Source: a plasmid. Taken from it: a stretch of 64,000 bases of DNA. The translations under genes were made by a program, and so were the position numbers. The notes beneath the pieces were generated by a model. That model did no database searches. It worked only from the letters and a program-made list of their open reading frames with translations, and was not told the origin of the DNA. Where the stretch lies: sequence record NZ_CP110908.1; one strand, 5' to 3'. Of the stretch, positions 4,515 to 43,542 are shown one piece after another (positions within the stretch are counted from its first letter, which is position 1; each line of letters starts with the position of its first letter).

Positions 4515-5450
4515 TCAGCCGCCAAAATGCGCCACGTTGTTGATAATCCACTCCGGGCCGATCACATCAGGGAAGCTGTCCTCATCGTCCGGGTCAGCCT
4601 CGCCCCATTCCAGCTCGTCAGTGATGTACACGTCCGTTTCGCCGCTGACGTACCGGGCATAACCGCAGTAATTGCAGCCCTGCTCCGCAAACCAATGCTC
4701 CACTTCACCGCCATATCGCTGACTGAGTTCAGCCACAACGACCTCGCCAACCGGACTCCAGGGGGTGTCAAAATCCACCGTCAGCGTGTTCTCTCCGGCG
4801 AAACAGATATTTGACTCATAACCGACCGGCCACTTGCAACCGTACCGGGTCAGATAGTGGTCATATGACGACGGGACACCCGTCAGCAGGCCACCGTTGA
4901 AGCCGTTCACTTCAATATCCAGGCGCGTCGGCAGGACATCACGCAAATCCACTGGCTCTGCGGCAAACAAATCATCACCAGCATCGCACAGGCTGTTCCA
5001 CCATTCCTCCACCGGCGCAGGCCGGAAACTGTTTCCCCAGTCAAAAGATTTTTGCTGGTACAGCTGCCGGATGACTACCTGTTCCGGTTCACTGAGGGTA
5101 GCCCAGCGGGCATGCCCGATATGGCTGTCCAGCCAGCACTGATGCAGCGTCTGGCAGGTTTCCACATCCAGCACAGCTCCGGCCATAAACATCGCCAGCC
5201 AGTCGCTGTATGCCTGGGCTGAAGCCCGGTTGTCTGCGGCCATCCCGTGAGCAACCAGTTGCGGGTATGGCGTGTAACACAGTTCTGTCAGGGGGCGCAG
5301 TATCCCCGCACAGCCTGCCAGGAAAAGCTGAATACCGTCTTTTCTGGCGCGGCGATGCAGGGACAGCCCGCCTCCGGCAATCCACGTTTTGAGGGCATCA
5401 CTGTTTTGAATACCACTGAACATCAGTCGGTTGGCACACCAGTTCGGCAT
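4515..5450 (-). CDS. DUF1281-family protein (MPNWC N-terminus)
   Basis: 311 aa beginning MPNWCANRL, the characteristic start of DUF1281 plasmid proteins. Confidence 0.65.
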   Translation of the reverse strand: MPNWCANRLMFSGIQNSDALKTWIAGGGLSLHRRARKDGIQLFLAGCAGILRPLTELCYTPYPQLVAHGMAADNRASAQAYSDWLAMFMAGAVLDVETCQTLHQCWLDSHIGHARWATLSEPEQVVIRQLYQQKSFDWGNSFRPAPVEEWWNSLCDAGDDLFAAEPVDLRDVLPTRLDIEVNGFNGGLLTGVPSSYDHYLTRYGCKWPVGYESNICFAGENTLTVDFDTPWSPVGEVVVAELSQRYGGEVEHWFAEQGCNYCGYARYVSGETDVYITDELEWGEADPDDEDSFPDVIGPEWIINNVAHFGG

Positions 5451-5990: not shown

Positions 5991-6413
5991 ATGTTACTTT
6001 TTGTCGCCCCCGAACAGGAGCCGGTGCAGTCCACTGCCCCGCTGTTCACCGAACGTTGCCCGGCGGGTTTTCCGTCGCCGGCCGCCGATTACACCGAAGA
6101 AGAGCTGGACCTGAACACTTACTGTATCCGGCGTCCGGCTGCAACGTTCTTCGTCAGGGCTATCGGGGATTCGATGCGGGATATGGGTCTGCATTCCGGC
6201 GATTTAATGGTGGTCGACAAAGCAGAGAAACCCATGCAGGGGGATATCGTTATCGCGGAAACAAACGGCGAATTCACGGTTAAACGCCTGCAGCTGAAGC
6301 CCCGCATTGCCCTGCTGCCGATGAACCCGGCCTACCCCACGCTCTATCCGGAAGAACTGCAGATTTTTGGGGTGGTGACGGCTTTTATACACAAAACCCG
6401 GAGCACAGACTGA
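5991..6413 (+). CDS. umuD: Translesion DNA polymerase V accessory subunit (UmuD/MucA family)
   Basis: 140 aa; S24 peptidase signature GDSM...K; FPSPAADY region aligns to UmuD. Confidence 0.9.
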
Positions 6414-7687
6414 TGTTTGCGCTCGCGGACGTGAATTCGTTCTATGCCAGCTGCGAAAAGGTCTTTCGCCCTGATCTGCGGAATAAACCCGTTGTCGTTC
6501 TCTCAAATAATGATGGCTGCGTCATTGCGAGAAGCCCTGAAGCGAAGCGGCTGGGCATAAAAATGGGGGTACCGTGGTTTCAGCTGAAGTTGGTGAAATT
6601 TCCGGAGCCGGTCATCGCGTTCTCCAGTAATTACGCGTTGTATGCGAGTCTCAGCAACAGAGTGATGATCCATTTAGAGGAAATGGCGCCACGGGTGGAG
6701 CAGTATTCCATTGATGAGATGTTTCTGGACATTCGCGGCATAGACCGCTGCATTAATTTTGAGGACTTCGGCCGGCAGCTGCGTGAGCACGTCCGGAACG
6801 GAACCGGCCTGACTATCGGCGTGGGTATGGGGCCAACTAAAACGCTGGCGAAGTCAGCTCAATGGGCCTCCAAAGAATGGTCGCAGTTTGGTGGCGTTCT
6901 GGCGTTAACGCCGGGAAATCCCCGCCGCACGGAAAAACTGCTCTCACTGCAGCCGGTGGAGGAAATCTGGGGGGTTGGCCGGAGAATTTCGAAAAAGCTG
7001 AACACAATGGGAGTCACCACGGCACTGCAGCTGGCGCGCGCGAACCCTGTATTTATCAGGAAGAATTTCAGCGTTGTGCTGGAGAGAACCGTCCGGGAAC
7101 TCAACGGAGAAAGCTGTATTTCGCTGGAAGAAGCGCCTCCGCCGAAACAGCAGATTGTCTGCAGCCGATCCTTTGGGGAGCGTGTTACGACGTATGAAGC
7201 CATGCGCCAGGCAGTTTGTCAGTACGCTGAGCGTGCAGCTGAAAAGCTGCGCGGCGAGCGTCAGTTCTGCAGGCATATTGCCGTGTTTGTGAAAACATCG
7301 CCATTCGCCGTAAATGAGCCCTACTACGGTAATCTGGCCAGTGAAAAACTGCTCATCCCCACGCAGGATACACGGGACATCATTGCCGCTGCCGTCAGAG
7401 CTCTGGACAGGATCTGGGTGGATGGTCACCGTTACGCAAAGGCAGGCTGTATGCTGAACGATTTCATGCCAACTGGGGTATCGCAGCTGAATTTGTTTGA
7501 TGAAGTACAGCCGTGGGAACGGAGCGAGCAGTTGATGCAAGTTCTGGATAGTATTAACCATTCCGGTCTGGGGAAAGTGTGGTTTGCGGGACGGGGCATT
7601 GCTCCTGAGTGGCAAATGAAACGAGAAATGCTTTCCCCTGCGTACACAACGCGCTGGAATGATCTCCCGGTGGCAATGATAAGATGA
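6413..7687 (+). CDS. umuC: Y-family DNA polymerase V catalytic subunit (UmuC/MucB family)
   Basis: 424 aa starting [41 protein letters not shown]; start overlaps the umuD stop. Confidence 0.9.
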
Positions 7688-7699
7688 TCTGCCACCGAA

Positions 7700-7719
7700 A
7701 GATTTCGCATGCGAAATCT
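7700..7719. promoter_or_regulatory. 20-bp perfect palindrome AGATTTCGCATGCGAAATCT, copy 1
   Basis: Exact palindrome in the umuC/RES-gene intergenic region. Confidence 0.8.
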
Positions 7720-7735
7720 AGGTTGTATCAACCCG

Positions 7736-9118
7736 TCAGAAATCGTCATCTGAATAGCCAGATTTCGCATGCGAAATCTCTGCTTCAGCGGCAGACAAAC
7801 TTATCTCTTTATGGCCTACCGGGGTTACTAACGATGTATACTTAACGCCCCTGATTTCATGGATCTCAATACTGCCCAACTTCAGTTCAAGTACGTCTTG
7901 CTGAGGTTTGTTTCGGGAGAGAACGGTAAACTCTCGTCTGAAATCACGATTGGTCGTTGTCATCTGAGGGTCAAACTCAGCGTAGTCATCGTCTTCTCTA
8001 TACATTGAAACTTGCGCTTCCAGTCGTCTGAGTTTGGCGTTTTTAACTGCCGATGACTTATGAAACAAGATCACATTACACGCGTTTTCCTCCCCTTGGC
8101 CAGAAGGCATTTGAGCAGACGAAAACTTGATTCCATCCAGTGAATATTTGTCCGTGATAGACAGATAATCAGCAATAGCTTGCGTAAGCAGATAGTTCGA
8201 TTCAGCGAGCTCAGGCACAACCGGCATAACTAGTTTGCGTGATAGTGTTGCTATGAAACGGCTACGCTCATATCTGACCAGATATTCAGGATCAAAACGG
8301 CTTACACCGTTTACAGCCACTCTGCCGAGTACCGTCAAATCGAGGAGACGTACAGGACGCAGTACCCGAAATTCAGAAACTACTACGAAACTACCGACCG
8401 GAGGACGGACTTCCGAAACGGCATTAGTTTTGGATGTTGCTCCATAAAATACAGATATTCCTTTCGCGTTCATCCGACCATAAGGTGCTAAATCGGAAGG
8501 AGGGGGGCCAAGCCTTGATTCTGGCATGTGCAACGCAGACTTAATGTCATCCTCGGACTTAAAAATCCGTCCACGATAAAGAGGCGTATCTGGAGTGAAA
8601 TCGGTAAAGGCTGAAGGGTGATTATCAAAGAGATAACCGAACACTTCATCAAACGTTTCAAGGGCATCATGATTGAAAAAACGATTACTTTCACGAAGCT
8701 TCTTTTCCATTAAAGCCCATTTGTTGGAAAGCTTAGAAGAAATTGATATTGCTGAGATGAAGAGTGGATCTTCACCATATTTATGTTCTTCAGTTCCCCG
8801 TTCGAACCAGCAATCCAACAGTATTTTTGAAAGGTCTTTAATCACATCGATGTTGGATGAAACCTCTTGTTCAAGAATCTCGATAAGAGGAGAACCTTCC
8901 TGAACACCATACTCATGGTCTACTTCGCCAGGAGAATAATATTTTTCTATCAGCCAGTCAGTTTTATTTCCCAATGCATGCATAGACATGGTTCGGTCTT
9001 CATTACCACAGTAGTCGCATGGTCTGTAAGAATCCGGGTCATTAATGATCATGTGAAAGAGAACCGGGTCATTCTTCAAACAGTGACTGCAAACTCTCTT
9101 GTAATTCTCGTCAAGCAT
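7736..9118 (-). CDS. Large HEPN/RES-NTD-like plus RES-domain protein (460 aa), possible NAD-targeting toxin-type effector
   Basis: ORF 7736-9157 trimmed to ATG 9116-9118 (MLDENYKRVCSHC, CAGGAG SD); N-terminal CxxC...CxxC; central PYGRMNAKGISVFYGATSKTNAVSEV resembles RES (Arg-Glu-Ser) domains. Confidence 0.55.
   Translation of the reverse strand: MLDENYKRVCSHCLKNDPVLFHMIINDPDSYRPCDYCGNEDRTMSMHALGNKTDWLIEKYYSPGEVDHEYGVQEGSPLIEILEQEVSSNIDVIKDLSKILLDCWFERGTEEHKYGEDPLFISAISISSKLSNKWALMEKKLRESNRFFNHDALETFDEVFGYLFDNHPSAFTDFTPDTPLYRGRIFKSEDDIKSALHMPESRLGPPPSDLAPYGRMNAKGISVFYGATSKTNAVSEVRPPVGSFVVVSEFRVLRPVRLLDLTVLGRVAVNGVSRFDPEYLVRYERSRFIATLSRKLVMPVVPELAESNYLLTQAIADYLSITDKYSLDGIKFSSAQMPSGQGEENACNVILFHKSSAVKNAKLRRLEAQVSMYREDDDYAEFDPQMTTTNRDFRREFTVLSRNKPQQDVLELKLGSIEIHEIRGVKYTSLVTPVGHKEISLSAAEAEISHAKSGYSDDDF
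7760..7779. promoter_or_regulatory. 20-bp palindrome, copy 2 (inside the 3' end of the RES-domain gene)
   Basis: Exact AGATTTCGCATGCGAAATCT; encodes EISHAKS in frame. Confidence 0.8.
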
Positions 9119-9134
9119 CGTGATGCTCCTGTAA

Positions 9135-9154
9135 AAATTTCGCATGCGAAATCT
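9135..9154. promoter_or_regulatory. Palindrome copy 3 (AAATTTCGCATGCGAAATCT, one arm mismatch), 17-36 bp upstream of the RES-gene start
   Basis: Operator-like position. Confidence 0.7.
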
Positions 9155-9160
9155 CAATAT

Positions 9161-9484
9161 CTAATTTCGCCGATAGAGTTCTTTAACGCTTGCAGATAGC
9201 TGGTAGTGCTGTTTTGCCCACCGCCCGTAGTTATTAACGGACTCATACTGACGCTCGGCAGCACCATCACGGTAATACTGTATATGGATAATCCCATGTA
9301 GCTGCAGATAGCTGGCTACCGTTGTTACATTATTGCGAATGAAGCGCGTGTGGCTCTGGAACACATCAAGATCAACTCCGTCCTGTCCTTCATCAAGCGC
9401 ATCAAGAATAAAAGCGATTAATGCAGAAGCGATAGAACGTCTGCCAGAGCCTGCGATACAAGCATCAAGCTCTTGAAAGGTCAT
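9161..9484 (-). CDS. Hypothetical protein (107 aa), last gene of the par operon
   Basis: 4-bp overlap with the upstream ORF. Confidence 0.5.
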   Translation of the reverse strand: MTFQELDACIAGSGRRSIASALIAFILDALDEGQDGVDLDVFQSHTRFIRNNVTTVASYLQLHGIIHIQYYRDGAAERQYESVNNYGRWAKQHYQLSASVKELYRRN

Positions 9485-9921
9485 GTGGATTTCCTGTTGT
9501 AACGGTAGCTGGCATCCTCTTCAATTGCCGCCACGAACCATCCGGTAGCCGTTTGCCTGTCTATGCTATCAGGCAAGGAAGCGACTAACTGCTCAAGTGG
9601 AAGTGTACGATTAGCTCTGAATATCAGCGCCGACATACCACACCAGTCCTGGTTACTTTCTGGCTTCCAGCCGATGCTGAGCATCAATGTTAACGCTGTC
9701 TGAGCTGCCCACAACGGAGTTTCAGCCGGGTTAGAGGACCATGAAAGTAACGCCGCGCCGGGTACGGGCCTGCTTCTTGTAACATATCCCAGATTGATAG
9801 CCGCTTCTGTTAATGCGGCAGCTGCTTCGGATTGAGTTCCGGGATATCGAAGCGCCCAGAGGCGGACAATTTGGCCACGGAATGCCATGGCCATTTCGGT
9901 GAACGGGGTTGATTTCATCAC
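9481..9921 (-). CDS. Hypothetical protein (146 aa), par operon
   Basis: 4-bp overlaps with both neighbours. Confidence 0.5.
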   Translation of the reverse strand: MMKSTPFTEMAMAFRGQIVRLWALRYPGTQSEAAAALTEAAINLGYVTRSRPVPGAALLSWSSNPAETPLWAAQTALTLMLSIGWKPESNQDWCGMSALIFRANRTLPLEQLVASLPDSIDRQTATGWFVAAIEEDASYRYNRKST

Positions 9922-10949
9922 TGAGAGCGCATCCCTTTGACGCGTAGTTCAGAAGCCTCAACTGAAATCTCACCAATTTCCATTTTCACCCACACATACC
10001 CAGCTTTATCTGGCGCACGGTCAGTCATTATTACCCCTTGCTGACCGTCTATCTCGACAACAACCTGCCATGTTTTTACATCTGAATTACAGTCTAAAAG
10101 CTTGGTTGATTTTTTGTTCTGAGACTTAGATTTCGCATGCGAAATCTCACCTTTGCTTTTGTTCTTAACTGCATCAAGAACAGCTTTAACCTGCGAACGT
10201 GAAATACCAGACTCTCGCGCAGCTGCGACAAGCTTCTCGGCCTCTTCGGGAGACTTTTCATTTACCTGTATCAGTGTGTATGCCAGATCGACATCGGATG
10301 TGATTTTATCCCGGAGAAGGGCGGTAACATTTTCTGGTGCATCAATGAGACGAAGGTGTTTACTGACAAATGAGGTAGGCTTACCCATTGTTTTTGCGAT
10401 CTGCTCACCCGTCATATTGAACTCATGCTTGAGCTCATAGAACGATTTTGCAGTCGCTAATGGTTTCAAACCAGACTGCTGCAGATTTTCAATGAGCTGA
10501 CCGATGATGCGTTCTTTTCTTTCCCGTGGTGGTTTACCGACATAAATATCAATGTGGGTATCACCACGCTTGCGGGCAGTGCGAACACGCGTTTCGCCTA
10601 ACCATATCTGGTAGCCACGTCTGTCACGAGGATAACAACGAGGCGGGGTAAGCATCCCTATCGTTTCGAAGGTATCAGCCATACCATCGATAATATCTTC
10701 CTCGAAGTCTTCTTCAGGTCGCACTTGTTCTTCAGCATAAACCAGATTTATATCGACACGGATTATCTGTCCATCAGGTTCGATATCCGGTCGGGCAATA
10801 TCCGCCATAATCTGGTGCGCAGCTATATCATGGTTCTGCTCATCTGGTTGTTTATTTGCAATGACCTGTTCAATATCAGAAACAACAGATGCATTTTTTT
10901 TCATTTCCTGCTGCGCCTGGAGTCGTCTCATAAACGGTTTCTTGGCCAT
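9918..10949 (-). CDS. parB: ParB/KorB-family partition protein
   Basis: 343 aa; ParB N-terminal-like region (RCYPRDRRGYQIWLGETRVRTARKRG) and HTH (MTGEQIAKTMGKPTSFVSKHLRL); contains palindrome copy 4. Confidence 0.75.
   Translation of the reverse strand: MAKKPFMRRLQAQQEMKKNASVVSDIEQVIANKQPDEQNHDIAAHQIMADIARPDIEPDGQIIRVDINLVYAEEQVRPEEDFEEDIIDGMADTFETIGMLTPPRCYPRDRRGYQIWLGETRVRTARKRGDTHIDIYVGKPPRERKERIIGQLIENLQQSGLKPLATAKSFYELKHEFNMTGEQIAKTMGKPTSFVSKHLRLIDAPENVTALLRDKITSDVDLAYTLIQVNEKSPEEAEKLVAAARESGISRSQVKAVLDAVKNKSKGEISHAKSKSQNKKSTKLLDCNSDVKTWQVVVEIDGQQGVIMTDRAPDKAGYVWVKMEIGEISVEASELRVKGMRSQ
10128..10147. promoter_or_regulatory. Palindrome copy 4 (exact), inside the parB coding sequence
   Basis: AGATTTCGCATGCGAAATCT; encodes EISHAKS in the ParB frame. 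Confidence 0.8.
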
Positions 10950-11815
10950 TACTTACCTCCTGCGAGCAGAATAATTTTCTTAGTAAGTTCTTTATACTGA
11001 ATTGCAGGAAGACATTTGGGGTCATATTCATCAAATGAGAGACCAAGTTCGATCGCTTCCTTTGCAGCAGCAGGTACAAATGATATATAGGCGAGAATGT
11101 ATTCTTCAGAGTAGCCTTTTCCCTGAAGGATCTCGATGAGGAGATTCAGGTTCAGTGTATCAATAGGCCCCAGATATCCTTCTTTAAGTGGCTTTTTATA
11201 ATTTTTGACCTGCGTCTGCGTCACATAAGTCCCCATGAACTGCAGCGAAGGATTGTAGTTCCGCTTAATTTTCTGCATATAAGTAAGCTGTTTACCAACT
11301 GCATTACGGGCCTGCTTCTCCAGCAGGGTAGGGATCAGAAGGTAATCAGCTGACATATGCGCTGCGATCATGACATTTGAATAAGATGGCGCTGAATCAG
11401 CAATAATAAAATCAAACTGTTTCTTCAGTTCTTCAATACGGTCCCTGAAGTCGAACATGCAGTCGCTGTTTCGGTAGTTAATTTCATTAAGTTCACTGGT
11501 AGCACCGATAAAAAAGCGCCCGCCAGGAAGCTCAATCGGTCGAATCTCTGTTTCAGAAAAGAAAAGCTGATATGTATTCGCTTCACCGGGTGTAAAACTG
11601 TTACTTAAAGGTTCGCGTTCTATCTCATAAGGTAAGCCGTCAGGGAATGCCCTCTCCGTCAGACCAGTTGTCCAGTCCATATCAATTTCAAGCACACGGA
11701 AACCAGCTTCACGAAGGTCATGTGCGATTTCACTGGATGACTGCGATTTAACGATTCCGCCCTTCTGACTACATACAACGATCAGTTTTCCGATAGGTCC
11801 AATTTTCAGTGTCAT
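10949..11815 (-). CDS. parA: ParA-family partition ATPase
   Basis: ORF 10949-11839 trimmed to MTLKIGPIGKLIVVCSQKGGIVKS (deviant Walker A); the longer ORF began at the ATG in the palindrome centre. Confidence 0.7.
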   Translation of the reverse strand: MTLKIGPIGKLIVVCSQKGGIVKSQSSSEIAHDLREAGFRVLEIDMDWTTGLTERAFPDGLPYEIEREPLSNSFTPGEANTYQLFFSETEIRPIELPGGRFFIGATSELNEINYRNSDCMFDFRDRIEELKKQFDFIIADSAPSYSNVMIAAHMSADYLLIPTLLEKQARNAVGKQLTYMQKIKRNYNPSLQFMGTYVTQTQVKNYKKPLKEGYLGPIDTLNLNLLIEILQGKGYSEEYILAYISFVPAAAKEAIELGLSFDEYDPKCLPAIQYKELTKKIILLAGGK

Positions 11816-11828
11816 GTAACAATCCTTA

Positions 11829-11846
11829 AGATTTCGCATGCGAAAT
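11829..11846. promoter_or_regulatory. Palindrome copy 5 (AGATTTCGCATGCGAAAT, 3' end degenerate), 14 bp upstream of the parA start
   Basis: Operator-like position. Confidence 0.7.
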
Positions 11847-12046
11847 GTTTGAGAAGGGGCGGCACGGCTTGAAAGAGTATTTCAATAATGAAATGAATTC
11901 ATTGCGGGATTTCATACACACTCCTGTGAGTCAGGCGTTTCGCCAGGTGCAGAAGCAGCTATCTGCCACTGCGTTTGTTGTCGCGCTTTCATGACAACAC
12001 AAACAGTATACAGAGAAAATATAAGATATCAATAATGATACGCAAT

Positions 12047-12065
12047 AGATTTCGCATGCGAAATC
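12047..12065. promoter_or_regulatory. Palindrome copy 6 (AGATTTCGCATGCGAAATC)
   Basis: About 230 bp upstream of parA. Confidence 0.75.
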
Positions 12066-12221
12066 ACATTTTATGTCCGTTAGTAAAAGCCGAACCAGCG
12101 GCTTTTTTACGTCACTGGTTTAATACCCTCGCCATCTGGACACTCCGATAATTCTGTCCAGTTCTGCTGGCAGCGCAGGATCTGGCCTGATAGTCTTGGG
12201 TAATAACTACAGGAGGTAGAG

Positions 12222-12440
12222 ATGACATTTTTCCTTATTATTGCGTTTGCTCTGATAGTCGTCGGTAGGCTTCTGCTGCGAAAGAGCCTAAATAAACTCC
12301 ACAATGAGTATTACCGCCGCGCTGACGAGCGGGGATGCGCGGAACGTTATGAATCGTTCGTTCGCCTTTACAATTCCAGAGATCCCCGCATTTTAGAAAT
12401 TGCTTATCTGGAAGCCATTTCCTGCACTAAGGCCGCTTGA
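12222..12440 (+). CDS. Small hydrophobic protein (72 aa)
   Basis: GGAGGTAGAG SD; N-terminal TM-like FFLIIAFALIVVG; followed by a terminator hairpin. Confidence 0.45.
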   Translation: MTFFLIIAFALIVVGRLLLRKSLNKLHNEYYRRADERGCAERYESFVRLYNSRDPRILEIAYLEAISCTKAA

Positions 12441-12453
12441 GCGGCCTTTTTTA
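12431..12453 (+). terminator. Rho-independent terminator
   Basis: GGCCGCTTGAGCGGCC hairpin followed by TTTTTT. Confidence 0.65.
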
Positions 12454-12515
12454 TATCCCTCGTTTAATTCTCCGCTCGGTTAGACATTCAGGTATTTCTG
12501 TCCACGTCAGTTAGC

Positions 12516-12914
12516 TCAGGTCCATAACGAAAGAATCCAGCCAGCTATCACATCGTTTGAAATTGATGCGAAAACTCCACACGCGCCTCCAAGCCACCAT
12601 TTATGCTTTCCCACAAAACGCTTTAGCTTTTCCCCTCTGGTAAGTGATGCCTCATGCAATTCGATAAGCGTTATCCATTCCTGTATCTTCTGTTTATAAT
12701 AATTCCAGCTATTCTTATCTACCTGTTCCTGAGATAGCGGTTTTATTCTTCTGGAGATCCAGCCGCAGAATTCGGGAGGCATAATTTCCGATAACTCTTT
12801 TACACCAAAATCAAACCGGTGCTGGTTAAGAAGAGATATAATTTCTCTCTGTTCAGCGGTGTTAAGCCCAGCGCGGTCGCGGACTTCAATTAGTTGGTCC
12901 AGTGTCATAAGCAA
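12516..12914 (-). CDS. Hypothetical protein (132 aa, C-terminal hydrophobic segment)
   Basis: ORF in an AT-rich segment. Confidence 0.4.
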   Translation of the reverse strand: MLMTLDQLIEVRDRAGLNTAEQREIISLLNQHRFDFGVKELSEIMPPEFCGWISRRIKPLSQEQVDKNSWNYYKQKIQEWITLIELHEASLTRGEKLKRFVGKHKWWLGGACGVFASISNDVIAGWILSLWT

Positions 12915-13044
12915 GCCCTCTTATGGTTGAAGACCCCTATTTTATCACCTCCGGAACATGGCCGTAGAAGTCGCCCTGTTATGTCCATTTATAATAAATT
13001 TGCGTTCGCCTGGACGTTCAGTTGTTTCAGTTCACTTACTTACC

Positions 13045-18725: not shown

Positions 18726-19634
18726 ATGAAAACGGGCTCAGAGTATCATGTCGGTGTTGTTGGTTTAGGTTCAATGGGGATGGGAGCGGCACTGTCATGC
18801 GTGCGCGCCGGTCTGTCCACCTGGGGGGCTGATCTGAACGTCAGAGCATGCGAAACCCTCAAAAAATCAGGGGCATGCGGCGTTTCTGATAACGCAGCAG
18901 TGTTTGCAGAAAAACTGGATGCGCTGCTGTTACTGGTGGTCAACGCGGCTCAGGTGAAGCAGATACTGTTTGGCGATAACGGTGTTGCCCGGCATCTGAA
19001 ACCCGGAACCGTTGTGATGGTTTCCTCCACAATTGCCAGTGCTGATGCACAGGAAATTGCTACAGCCCTGGCGGCATTCGATCTGGATATGCTGGATGCA
19101 CCTGTTTCCGGTGGCGCGATCAAAGCGGCTGACGGGGAAATGACCGTCATGGCTTCCGGCAGTGATAACGCTTTCGCCCGTCTCGAACCAGTCCTGGATG
19201 CTATTGCAGGCAAAGTTTACCGCATTGGTAAAGAACCGGGCCTGGGTGCCACGGTGAAAATAATTCACCAGCTTTTAGCGGGTGTACATATTGCCGCAGG
19301 GGCAGAAGCAATGGCACTGGCCGCACGCGCGGGCATTCCACTGGATGTGATGTATGACGTGGTCACCCACGCTGCCGGCAACTCCTGGATGTTCGAAAAC
19401 CGGATGCGCCACGTTGTTGATGGTGATTACACAGCTAAATCTGCCGTTGATATATTCGTAAAAGATTTAGGGTTAGTGGCCGATACCGCTAAATCACTCC
19501 ACTTCCCGCTGCCCCTGGCATCAACCGCATTCAATATGTTCACTGCAGCCAGTAACGCCGGTTACGGCAAAGAAGATGACAGTGCGGTCATCAAAATTTT
19601 CTCCGGTATCACTCTTCCTGGGAGAAAATCATGA
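18726..19634 (+). CDS. ltnD: L-threonate dehydrogenase (3-hydroxyisobutyrate dehydrogenase family, YgbJ/LtnD-like)
   Basis: 302 aa; GVVGLGSMGMGAA NAD-binding motif. Confidence 0.8.
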   Translation: MKTGSEYHVGVVGLGSMGMGAALSCVRAGLSTWGADLNVRACETLKKSGACGVSDNAAVFAEKLDALLLLVVNAAQVKQILFGDNGVARHLKPGTVVMVSSTIASADAQEIATALAAFDLDMLDAPVSGGAIKAADGEMTVMASGSDNAFARLEPVLDAIAGKVYRIGKEPGLGATVKIIHQLLAGVHIAAGAEAMALAARAGIPLDVMYDVVTHAAGNSWMFENRMRHVVDGDYTAKSAVDIFVKDLGLVADTAKSLHFPLPLASTAFNMFTAASNAGYGKEDDSAVIKIFSGITLPGRKS

Positions 19635-41802: not shown

Positions 41803-43542
41803 ATGTCATCTCTTGACTCTCTTGGCATTGAGTACAATTTAAAACAATCCTCATTAAAAGATGATTACTTATCCTTTTACGAGCGCGAAATATCATACAG
41901 ACTTCCTAATAGTTTTACCCTGCTAATCATAACGAATGAAAAAATAGAAGATGTTGCTTCGGTTTATTCAAAGAAATATCCACTATCAAAAATCATTGTC
42001 GCGTCATATGGATATGAAAGCTATACAACTTCGTTTTTAGATAATGTGGTTTTCCACGCTTTCATAAATCTAGATGCGCTTATCAATCAGATTTCTTTAA
42101 TTTATTTTGATGCGGTTATTGAACATAGCTCTAATCGAAAATCACATAAACTAAAACTGTTTAAGAAACTTTTCTTCAGATTACCAAAAGGAGGGGTTTA
42201 TTTCATCCAAGAATTACATGCTAAGTTTATTTCTGGATTAATCGATTGCGACGGCCCTGACATTCTTGACCTTATAAACGAAGTTTCCCAATTAAAAATA
42301 TCAAATAATGACAGAAGAAAAAACGCTGACCCTTATGCCGTAGCACTTGCTGAATGTTGCGAAAGTATATTTATAAAAAGTAAGTTAGGTGTCTTGGTCA
42401 AAGGTAAAGCTTCTTTCAAAAGTTTAAGAAGCAACGAAGCTAAAAACATGATCAACTCTGGTTCATTGAAAGGGAGTATAATTGTATCAAATGATAATGA
42501 ATTTGAATTTGTACATTCAATAACATCTGTTATAACTCCAACTGGTGAGCCATGGCGAAATCCAGCCAAATTTAAAATACCAGAATCGTTTTTAGCTAAA
42601 TACCAAAGTGTACATTGTGATGTTGGACAGATCGCATATATGGATGGATATTTGTTGCCCGATTCCTTTAGAATGCAGCATCACAAAAAACTTACAAATC
42701 GTAATATAATCTCTTTAGTAGCTGATATTTGTTTATTAAAAGATGAAAAACCAGATCCGATTCATCTTGCAGGTGAATACTTTTATCTTGATTCGGAATA
42801 TCCGGGTCATTTCGGGCATTTTACTTCTGAGGTAGTTTCAAGACTATGGGCATGGGAAGAGATTAAAACAAGATCTCCTAATGCAAAAGTATTAATTGGG
42901 CTTGAAAAAGGAAAATCATTGCCAAGTTTTATTGAAACTATATTATCATGTTATCACATTAGTAGAAATGAAATACAAACCTTCGATAGTAGTATCACTG
43001 TTGATGTTCTTTATGCTGCCACTCCTTACTATGCTATCGGCAATCACATAAATCCAAAAATAAAAGATGTTTGGGAGAGAATTGGTGAGAGTACTAATGA
43101 TGGTATTTCCGGGATTATTGGCAATCGATTATTTATTTCTAGACCTGAAGGCGGGGAAAGAAAATGTCTAAATGCTGAAAAACTAGAACGTATATTCTTT
43201 GAAAGAGGTTTTGAGTTTTACAACCCTGAAAAATATTCCTGGAAAGATCAGGTTAAAACATTTTCCAGTGCTGACGTTATTGCTGGCTATGCGGGAAGCG
43301 GCACTTTCAACACCATGTTTGCTAAAGGTTCTAAAAAAATATTTATCATTGGTTCAGACTCATATACTGCAACAAACGAGCATTATATCTGCGCCATTAA
43401 AGGTTATGATTTAAATTATTACCTTGGTGATTCATTAGTAAAACATGGCAATGTATTTTCACTAAAAGCATTTAAATCTGATTATAACTTTAATTATGAA
43501 CGAGATGAAGAATCACTCATTGATGCATTAAGTAAAATATAA
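41803..43542 (+). CDS. DUF563/GT61-like capsular glycosyltransferase (kps region 2)
   Basis: 579 aa; EYFYLDSEYPGHFGHFTSEVVSRLWAW matches the DUF563 core. Confidence 0.6.
   Translation: MSSLDSLGIEYNLKQSSLKDDYLSFYEREISYRLPNSFTLLIITNEKIEDVASVYSKKYPLSKIIVASYGYESYTTSFLDNVVFHAFINLDALINQISLIYFDAVIEHSSNRKSHKLKLFKKLFFRLPKGGVYFIQELHAKFISGLIDCDGPDILDLINEVSQLKISNNDRRKNADPYAVALAECCESIFIKSKLGVLVKGKASFKSLRSNEAKNMINSGSLKGSIIVSNDNEFEFVHSITSVITPTGEPWRNPAKFKIPESFLAKYQSVHCDVGQIAYMDGYLLPDSFRMQHHKKLTNRNIISLVADICLLKDEKPDPIHLAGEYFYLDSEYPGHFGHFTSEVVSRLWAWEEIKTRSPNAKVLIGLEKGKSLPSFIETILSCYHISRNEIQTFDSSITVDVLYAATPYYAIGNHINPKIKDVWERIGESTNDGISGIIGNRLFISRPEGGERKCLNAEKLERIFFERGFEFYNPEKYSWKDQVKTFSSADVIAGYAGSGTFNTMFAKGSKKIFIIGSDSYTATNEHYICAIKGYDLNYYLGDSLVKHGNVFSLKAFKSDYNFNYERDEESLIDALSKI

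Follow-up and report, generated by a model that had tools for sequence, protein, structure and literature searches.

A palindrome array at the parAB operon of an IncF-type plasmid as probable binding sites of a KorB-like ParB protein

Introduction

KorB of plasmid RK2 loads at its operator OB as a cytidine triphosphate (CTP)-dependent clamp, slides along the DNA and silences at long range, all of which has been established experimentally (PMC11790492). The Bsr ParB-parS system and BisD-bisS of ICEclc also combine a ParB-family protein with short palindromic sites, some of them intragenic, and BisD is a CTP clamp that controls distant promoters (PMC5450999, PMC12409273). In this study, we analysed a 64,000-nucleotide stretch of plasmid DNA from sequence record NZ_CP110908.1 (the whole stretch is called the window below), in which six copies of a short palindrome with the core TTTCGCATGCGAAA punctuate an operon for the partition proteins ParA and ParB. 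The Bsr (Burkholderiales secondary-replicon) parS sites are 16-bp palindromes with a central CG and bisS is GAGCTATCCCCnGGGGATAGCTC; neither matches this core. An earlier note on the window, made from its letters alone, had likened the array to parS or KorB-operator arrays. We compared the sites and proteins with those of related plasmids and used the palindrome as the only query for a blind search of viral contigs. The results suggest, with a probability that we put at about 0.8, that the palindromes are specific binding and loading sites, equivalent to parS or OB, of the KorB-like ParB encoded within the array.

Results

Six palindromes with one core lie only at the par locus

We searched the entire window for the 20-mer AGATTTCGCATGCGAAATCT, allowing up to three mismatches. 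The search returned six matches (sites A to F, Table 1), the same six positions that the earlier note had given, and none outside 7700-12066. The chance expectation for the window is 0.01, and six copies were reached in 0 of 100 shuffles. The exact 14-bp core is common to all six copies, with half-sites 2 bp apart (TTTCGC-AT-GCGAAA); three copies are perfect 20-mers, and the other three deviate at an outermost position only. The half-site TTTCGC resembles the TTTCAC of parS and the TTTAGC of the RK2 OB. No canonical parS was found in the window, nor any RK2-type OB (TTTAGCSGCTAAA) with up to one mismatch, and a repeat search of 7400-12700 revealed no other convincing repeat family.

The earlier note had named a palindrome lacking enrichment at par as an outcome that would speak against its idea. 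In the complete 81-kb relative NZ_CP055091, exactly six sites were found, all at the par locus, which is the only partition locus annotated there; the remaining 76 kb contained none. The 224-kb Klebsiella pneumoniae plasmid pK2044 (NZ_CP026012.1, fetched whole), whose ParB is 95% identical to the window ParB, carries three exact sites and one double variant, likewise at the par locus only. The variant is its site A (18884-18903 of locus L011), where both outermost core positions are flipped in a symmetric double change (AGAATTCGCATGCGAATTCT). As read from the sequence, this change may relax autoregulation. Judged by the condition that the earlier note had set, both plasmids favour its idea. 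On the scale of a bacterial chromosome, chance would give about 0.02 exact 14-mers per 5 Mb.

The core is invariant among relatives and accompanied only by parA and parB

We assembled a comparative set of 18 loci (377 kb) whose ParB proteins are 39-100% identical to the window protein; a contig scan of genomes gave five close relatives, and the divergent loci came from protein look-ups. The set contained 97 exact cores and two copies with one mismatch, where 0.001 would be expected by chance. The flanks of the core vary, and an AGA/TCT extension is confined to close relatives. The positions of the sites recur as well: 15-23 nt before the parA ATG in all divergent loci measured, 100-150 nt upstream of the first open reading frame (ORF) of an operon, in the linker of parB (10 loci sharing one frame, some of them with two copies), and immediately after orf107 in every locus that has this gene. 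The only genes common to all loci are parA and parB; loci L015 and L019 lack orf146, orf107 and the RES-domain gene and have 11 and 6 sites, respectively.

Loci L015, L016 and L018 carry extra sites 100-150 nt upstream of other operons, namely ParB_N-psiB-psiA and those with RadC, PspA and helicase genes, and a strong predicted promoter lies just downstream of several of these sites. On sequence grounds this layout has the pattern of a KorB-like regulon, which the window lineage does not show.

The ParB family comprised 135 clusters at E<=1e-20, and the source names given were all Enterobacterales except for one Vagococcus and one compost-metagenome entry. In PLSDB, about 600 records had a ParB match of at least 90% identity, and Klebsiella accounted for 818 of the 2,334 matching records overall.

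Blind retrieval by the 14-mer enriches for ParB genes

We searched the IMG/VR viral contigs with the exact 14-mer, which gave 120 loci (1.02 Mb), and with a composition-matched control palindrome (TTTGCCATGGCAAA), which gave 120 loci (1.00 Mb). ParB-like ORFs were called by the family hidden Markov model (E<=1e-3). A ParB-like ORF was present in 16/120 loci with the 14-mer versus 0/120 control loci (Fisher p = 1.8e-5), and at least two sites occurred in 23/120 versus 3/120 loci (Fisher p = 3.6e-5). In 8 of the 16, the site lay inside the ParB-like ORF itself. The retrieved proteins are about 23-31% identical to the window ParB and contain ParB_N, sometimes together with a KorB domain. They share KSxxW[VIC]SK, which is related to the recognition-helix motif [FW][VI]SKH[LM]R kept throughout the ParB family. 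Most of these ParB-like loci are not enterobacterial, because they come from DNA of 50-63% GC. The retrieval links the palindrome to ParB genes; therefore, the palindrome travels with ParB far beyond this plasmid family.

A wide, mostly high-GC ParB_N clade carries the exact 14-mer (L090, L112, L117, L126, L132, L145 and others). Searching the retrieved viral contigs by tblastn with the window ParA detected ParA in L035 and L072 only. The distant ParB_N proteins may be regulators of prophages, integrative and conjugative elements or plasmids.

These data bear on the possibility that another protein binds the palindromes, either the predicted winged-helix protein of orf107 or a host factor, while ParB binds elsewhere. 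The winged-helix fold of orf107 is modelled with confidence, most loci keep the gene, and a site always comes directly after it, but the exact sites of L015 and L019, which have neither orf107 nor orf146, exclude it as a general binder. Moreover, a ParB-like gene is all that the distant palindrome-retrieved contigs have in common, no further candidate ParB site was found near the operon, and we know of no enterobacterial regulator box that the palindrome matches. A binder other than ParB is thus very unlikely.

The operon encodes a KorB-like ParB and a short ParA

We analysed the two partition proteins by domain searches and pairwise alignment. The window ParB scored 62.4 bits for the KorB domain (PF08535, residues 178-262; cut-off 22.3), 40.6 bits for HTH_ParB (cut-off 22.6) and 75.9 for TIGR00180 parB_part (cut-off 58.45), and KorB_C (PF06613) is listed for many of its homologues. 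Its best matches by sequence among solved structures were Spo0J, ParB and Noc (E 1e-13 to 1e-15). BLASTP against KorB of pKJK5, where one OB was confirmed beside korB, gave 27% identity (E 2e-13) over the DNA-binding domain, linker and C-terminal domain; the C-terminal domains aligned as RAPDKAGYVWVK (ParB) and RRPPAEGYAWLK (pKJK5 KorB), and site C falls in the part of ParB aligned with the flexible linker of KorB. The P-motif GETRVR is invariant in four aligned ParBs and reads GETRxR in other family members and GATRxR in the Pantoea branch. The arginine equivalent to KorB R117 (PMC11790492) is retained, and the preceding arginine is replaced by threonine.

ParA contains the deviant Walker A motif KGGxxK[ST] (as SQKGGIVKS). 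It matched Pfam AAA_31 with 77 bits as well as CbiA and the ParA-like PHROG (E 2e-23), and it is 30% identical to IncC2 of IncP-1.

Organization of the operon and its plasmid context

The operon runs on the minus strand in the order upstream ORF (uORF), parA, parB, orf146, orf107 and RES-domain gene (Table 1); the starts of parA and of the RES gene are the true ones, as annotated in identical public plasmids. umuDC (5991-7687, plus strand) converges with the RES gene. Several plasmids of Citrobacter and Enterobacter that carry an F-type replicon (repA/tap) match a 4.6-kb region here at 100% identity; MOB-suite typed this replicon as IncFIC, and the first ~27 kb of the window is their shared backbone. 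The window is an IncF-type Citrobacter/Enterobacter plasmid backbone. The par locus lies on the leading-region side of oriT, in the series psiAB, ardA, methylase, DUF1281, umuDC, RES, parBA.

Table 1. Features of the par region, in window coordinates.
Feature	Position	Strand	Description
Site A	12047..12066	.	TGATTTCGCATGCGAAATCT in operon sense; candidate operator; position kept in relatives
Predicted sigma-70 promoter	12005..12032	-	TTGATA-16-TATACT; 10/12 consensus matches, best in region
Leader block	11928..11966	-	GCAGATAGCTGC...GGCGAAACGCC; two small hairpins; near-invariant in 8 relatives
uORF	11826..11915	-	29 codons, MKSRNEFISLLKYSFKPCRPFSNISHAKS-stop; ends over site B, 10 nt before parA ATG
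Site B	11829..11848	.	Abuts parA Shine-Dalgarno sequence, 13 nt before ATG; in every family member examined
parA	10949..11815	-	Walker-type partition ATPase, 288 amino acids, without N-terminal helix-turn-helix (HTH); ATG at 11815
parB	9918..10949	-	KorB-like ParB, 343 amino acids: ParB_N, HTH_ParB, KorB, linker, KorB_C-like C-terminus
Site C	10128..10147	.	Inside parB, EISHAKS; variable linker between DNA-binding and C-terminal domains
orf146	9481..9918	-	Conserved operon member; all-alpha, confident model (pLDDT 93)
orf107	9161..9484	-	Conserved operon member; predicted winged-helix (MarR/ArsR-like) fold
Site D	9135..9154	.	In 43-nt orf107-RES spacer; abuts RES ribosome-binding site, 16 nt before ATG
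RES-domain gene	7736..9118	-	460 amino acids, last in unit; variable cargo, absent or replaced in many relatives; ATG at 9118
Site E	7760..7779	.	3' end of RES gene; EISHAKS = codons 447-453 of 460
Site F	7700..7719	.	In 48-bp gap between convergent stops of umuC (7687) and RES gene (7736)

One site lies next to the predicted promoter

Two copies, those before parA (11829) and before the RES gene (9135), had been singled out by the earlier note as operators. Both do lie just upstream of these genes, but they adjoin ribosome-binding sites inside the transcription unit and not a promoter with its -35 and -10 elements. The copy next to the promoter is site A, with 14 bp between its end and the downstream -35 of the predicted par promoter. 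Helical phasing was rejected, because the distances from a site to the -35 (16-17, 25, 35 and 48-51 bp) are out of phase.

A second inverted repeat, TATCA-N4-TGATA, was observed at 12027-12040, overlapping the -35 (TTGATA) of the predicted par promoter. It also occurs at 8910 of L012, at 14289 and 18623 of L016 and at 4821, 8024 and 15658 of L018, and at several promoters in relatives it recurs 22-41 bp from a ParB-type site. Elsewhere, the TATCA/TGATA repeat is almost absent, being seen only at 42485 of the window (unrelated, N3-spaced), once in L009 and twice in L018 (77 bp and 3.5 kb from a site), and TATCA-N4-TGATA is missing from several loci that carry orf107. A second, KorA-like repressor could use this repeat as its operator.

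Between the par promoter and the uORF, the first stem of the leader block shows a few compensatory changes over eight relatives. The 10-mer CAGATAGCTG of the leader recurs twice in orf107 in the opposite orientation (9193-9202 and 9305-9314). The Shine-Dalgarno sequence and ATG of the uORF are invariant in the eight aligned relatives; its peptide is poorly conserved apart from the end, ...RPFSxISHAK(S), where site B provides the last codons in frame (NISHAKS-stop). The open frame was traced by hand for the window, L013 and L014, and the other indels of the alignment are multiples of three. The distance from the end of the uORF to the parA start suggests translational coupling. In the Yersinia-type relatives L016 and L018, a gene for 112 amino acids occupies the uORF position; considered as a KorA analogue, it gave a weak SSB match only and was rejected.

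We also considered that the palindromes act as RNA hairpins in the par transcript, affecting its stability or processing, attenuation, masking of ribosome-binding sites, or coupling between uORF and parA. Five of the six copies fall in the probable transcript, B and D abut Shine-Dalgarno sequences, an 8-bp stem is possible in each copy, E and F can pair with each other, and in the alignment fold the bases flanking site B can pair with the parA Shine-Dalgarno sequence. However, the single stems are weak (-7 to -10 kcal/mol), and in 4/5 tested segments folding was not better than in shuffles (z -0.3 to -1.1); what stood out was the D segment, where z -2.4 arises from a different pairing, and the trivial pairing of E with F. 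The 97 copies show zero compensatory variation, so it is the sequence that is conserved and not the pairing. Site A and many sites of relatives lie upstream of promoters or between divergent genes, and a search of 7000-13000 against Rfam (E<=1) gave no family match, which also counts against an RNA element. Hairpins would leave the link with ParB genes in unrelated contigs unexplained, and we regard them as very unlikely.

Copies inside genes are read in a preferred frame

Returning to the palindromes as probable DNA sites for ParB, we examined how the copies inside genes are translated. As the earlier note had said, the copies at 10128 (parB) and 7760 (3' end of the RES gene) encode EISHAKS in frame. 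In real genes the core is nearly always read as xT-TCG-CAT-GCG-AAA, that is, [I/V/L]SHAK: in the parB linker, the RES tail (window, L012 and L005), a umuC loop in L013, a hypothetical gene in L010 and the uORF. This xSHAK frame was used in 5/6 plasmid-locus contexts (binomial p ~0.02, for contexts that are maybe not fully independent), and a [V/L]SHAK-type frame in 6/8 embedded copies of the distant ParBs. The other two translations of the core would be FRMR(N) and (x)FACE. Embedded copies lie in low-complexity, disordered or terminal segments, where neighbouring residues vary and the core stays constant; site E keeps an identical position and frame in RES homologues of 59-66% identity (L005 and L012). 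Read most simply, selection acts on the DNA site, and of the three possible translations xSHAK is the one best tolerated. The earlier note had described a parS site embedded in parB as rarely noted on plasmids; site C does lie within parB, but in this clade such embedding is the rule.

At 8844-8857 of L013, a site lies within umuC, where VISHAKS stands in place of the LALTPGN loop of the window UmuC. Evidently, even a gene for a conserved enzyme can acquire the site, and here too the frame is xSHAK.

Other genes of the operon

orf146 and orf107 follow parB in most family members, and neither gave a significant match in Pfam, NCBIfam, PHROGs or PADLOC. No PDB fold match was found for the orf146 model. 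For the confident orf107 model, the best PDB matches were MarR, ArsR and TFE-like proteins, with weak E-values; judging from this model, orf107 is possibly a second DNA-binding protein, and it might be a partner analogous to KorA.

In the RES protein, the RES domain (residues 205-367) is preceded by an N-terminal part rich in cysteine (CSHC...CDYC). The RES gene has no adjacent Xre/ParS-type antitoxin gene; in pK2044 the RES gene is fragmented, and a classical RES-Xre pair was found elsewhere on that plasmid.

A further, very unlikely alternative is that the palindromes are recombination or cassette-boundary sites (resolvase or integrase targets, or hotspots of cargo exchange). It would fit sites that flank variable cargo (the RES gene between D and E/F; small genes bracketed in L010 and L018), and many loci have a gene for a serine or tyrosine recombinase at a distance of a few kb at most. 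However, the recombinase family differs per locus while the site is constant, gene calling in the stretches fetched for L015 and L019 gave no recombinase, and the sites in parB and directly before parA are fixed, away from cargo boundaries. Homologous exchange at identical 20-mers is possible as a secondary, occasional event.

Discussion

In this study, the palindromes of the window lineage were found at the par locus only, and their core was invariant throughout the family, accompanied in every locus only by ParA and ParB and enriched at and inside ParB genes in a blind search. Together with the KorB domain of the window ParB, these findings support the likeness to parS and KorB operators that the earlier note had proposed. 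From them we infer ParB binding, CTP clamping, repression, partition activity and a dual role of the sites as centromere and operator.

The system might work as follows. ParB dimers would recognise the core through the HTH/KorB domain, with the six palindromes as loading points. Like KorB and other ParBs (PMC11790492), this protein, which keeps a ParB N-terminal domain with a GxxRxR phosphate motif, would probably close there as a CTP-dependent clamp, which would then slide or spread across the ~4.4-kb par region. This ParB complex and the Walker ATPase ParA, contacted through a conserved N-terminal ParB peptide, would form the plasmid centromere. ParB occupancy of site A, upstream of the predicted -35, would auto-repress the operon, and ParB bound or clamped at sites B, C and D inside the transcription unit could form roadblocks for RNA polymerase. 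As the last gene of the unit, the RES gene would be regulated together with the others.

Several points weigh against this interpretation. The window ParB falls just below the Pfam cut-offs for ParB_N (25.5 versus 26.3) and KorB_C (19.5 versus 25 bits). The canonical ParB P-motif is GERRxR, and that of KorB is GARRYR (PMC11790492); CTP binding is not assured, because the motif of this family (GETRVR; GATRIR in Pantoea) departs from GERRxR. Of the six sites, a single one has a predicted promoter nearby, and that promoter is itself a consensus match only; for sites B, C and D, an operator role is conjectural. Plasmid pK2044 carries sopAB as well, so the par locus need not be the main partition system everywhere. 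Finally, our literature search of open-access papers found none that describes the site or this ParB family, and the 12-mer TTCGCATGCGAA appeared there in one unrelated eukaryotic paper only.

We advance a wider proposal only tentatively and think it rather doubtful. In the IncF world, this ParB family may play the part that KorB has in RK2, as a CTP-dependent sliding clamp with the double function of centromere protein and silencer; in lineages such as L015, L016 and L018, many operons of the leading region, of SOS inhibition and of anti-defence (ParB_N-psiB-psiA, RadC, PspA and helicase genes) would be under its control, with zygotic induction. If so, these genes would fire transiently in a recipient without ParB and then shut down. 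The 14-bp site is frozen across ParBs of 25-100% identity; therefore, plasmids of the family that share a cell, such as a pLVPK-type virulence plasmid with an IncF resistance plasmid in Klebsiella, would cross-regulate and compete for one set of partition proteins. The operator-like sites before leading-region genes in some relatives suggest a KorB-style switch of establishment genes in F-like plasmids, of which we found no description.

What takes the locus beyond the routine is the invariance of the site across divergent ParBs, its overprinting on parB, its presence on Klebsiella virulence plasmids and the possible control of the leading region. The clinical reach is indicated by carriers that include the hypervirulence plasmid pK2044 (pLVPK-type). 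Knowing the exact cis site opens the way to experiments on plasmid stability, incompatibility and curing, and could offer a compact ParB/parS pair for labelling DNA loci. The locus also shows cleanly how a DNA signal can be written over coding sequence: the 14-bp site stays unchanged among very divergent ParBs and habitually lies in disordered parts of parB, in the xSHAK frame.

Comparison with known systems

Among described systems, the chromosomal ParABS (Spo0J/ParB with parS TGTTNCACGTGAAACA) resembles this one in its palindrome with a TTTC half-site and in the sharing of one site by very divergent ParBs. The spo0J gene of Bacillus subtilis likewise carries a parS inside the parB gene itself. 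The present system differs from ParABS in its core and spacing, and it is plasmid-borne, has a KorB-type DNA-binding domain and a KorB_C-like C-terminus, and includes the extra conserved genes orf146 and orf107.

The likeness to IncC-KorB of IncP-1 plasmids (RK2/RP4, pKJK5) covers a ParB whose KorB DNA-binding domain is followed by a long, flexible linker and a KorB_C-like C-terminus, a short Walker ParA that resembles IncC2, and a short perfect palindrome with a TTTxGC half-site in several copies, one upstream of a -35 and others in or between genes. As in the RK2 regulon, sites precede many operons in the relatives L015, L016 and L018. In contrast, the IncP-1 OB has 13 bp with a 1-bp centre, whereas the core described here is 14 bp long and has 2 bp between its half-sites. 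We found no korA-like gene overlapping parA, whose 5' half has no alternative-frame ORF of at least 60 amino acids (only a 53-amino-acid GTG ORF). In the window lineage and pK2044, the sites are found only at the par locus (in the window, within 4.4 kb) and not plasmid-wide as in IncP-1, a trait that depends on the lineage. The replicon is of IncF type with the locus on the leading-region side, identity to KorB is 27%, and the P-motif is GETRVR versus GARRYR. The system would work like IncP-1 IncC/KorB/OB and chromosomal ParABS, but it is not a strict IncP-1 member, because its operator differs, no korA overlaps parA, and its sites are local in the window lineage.

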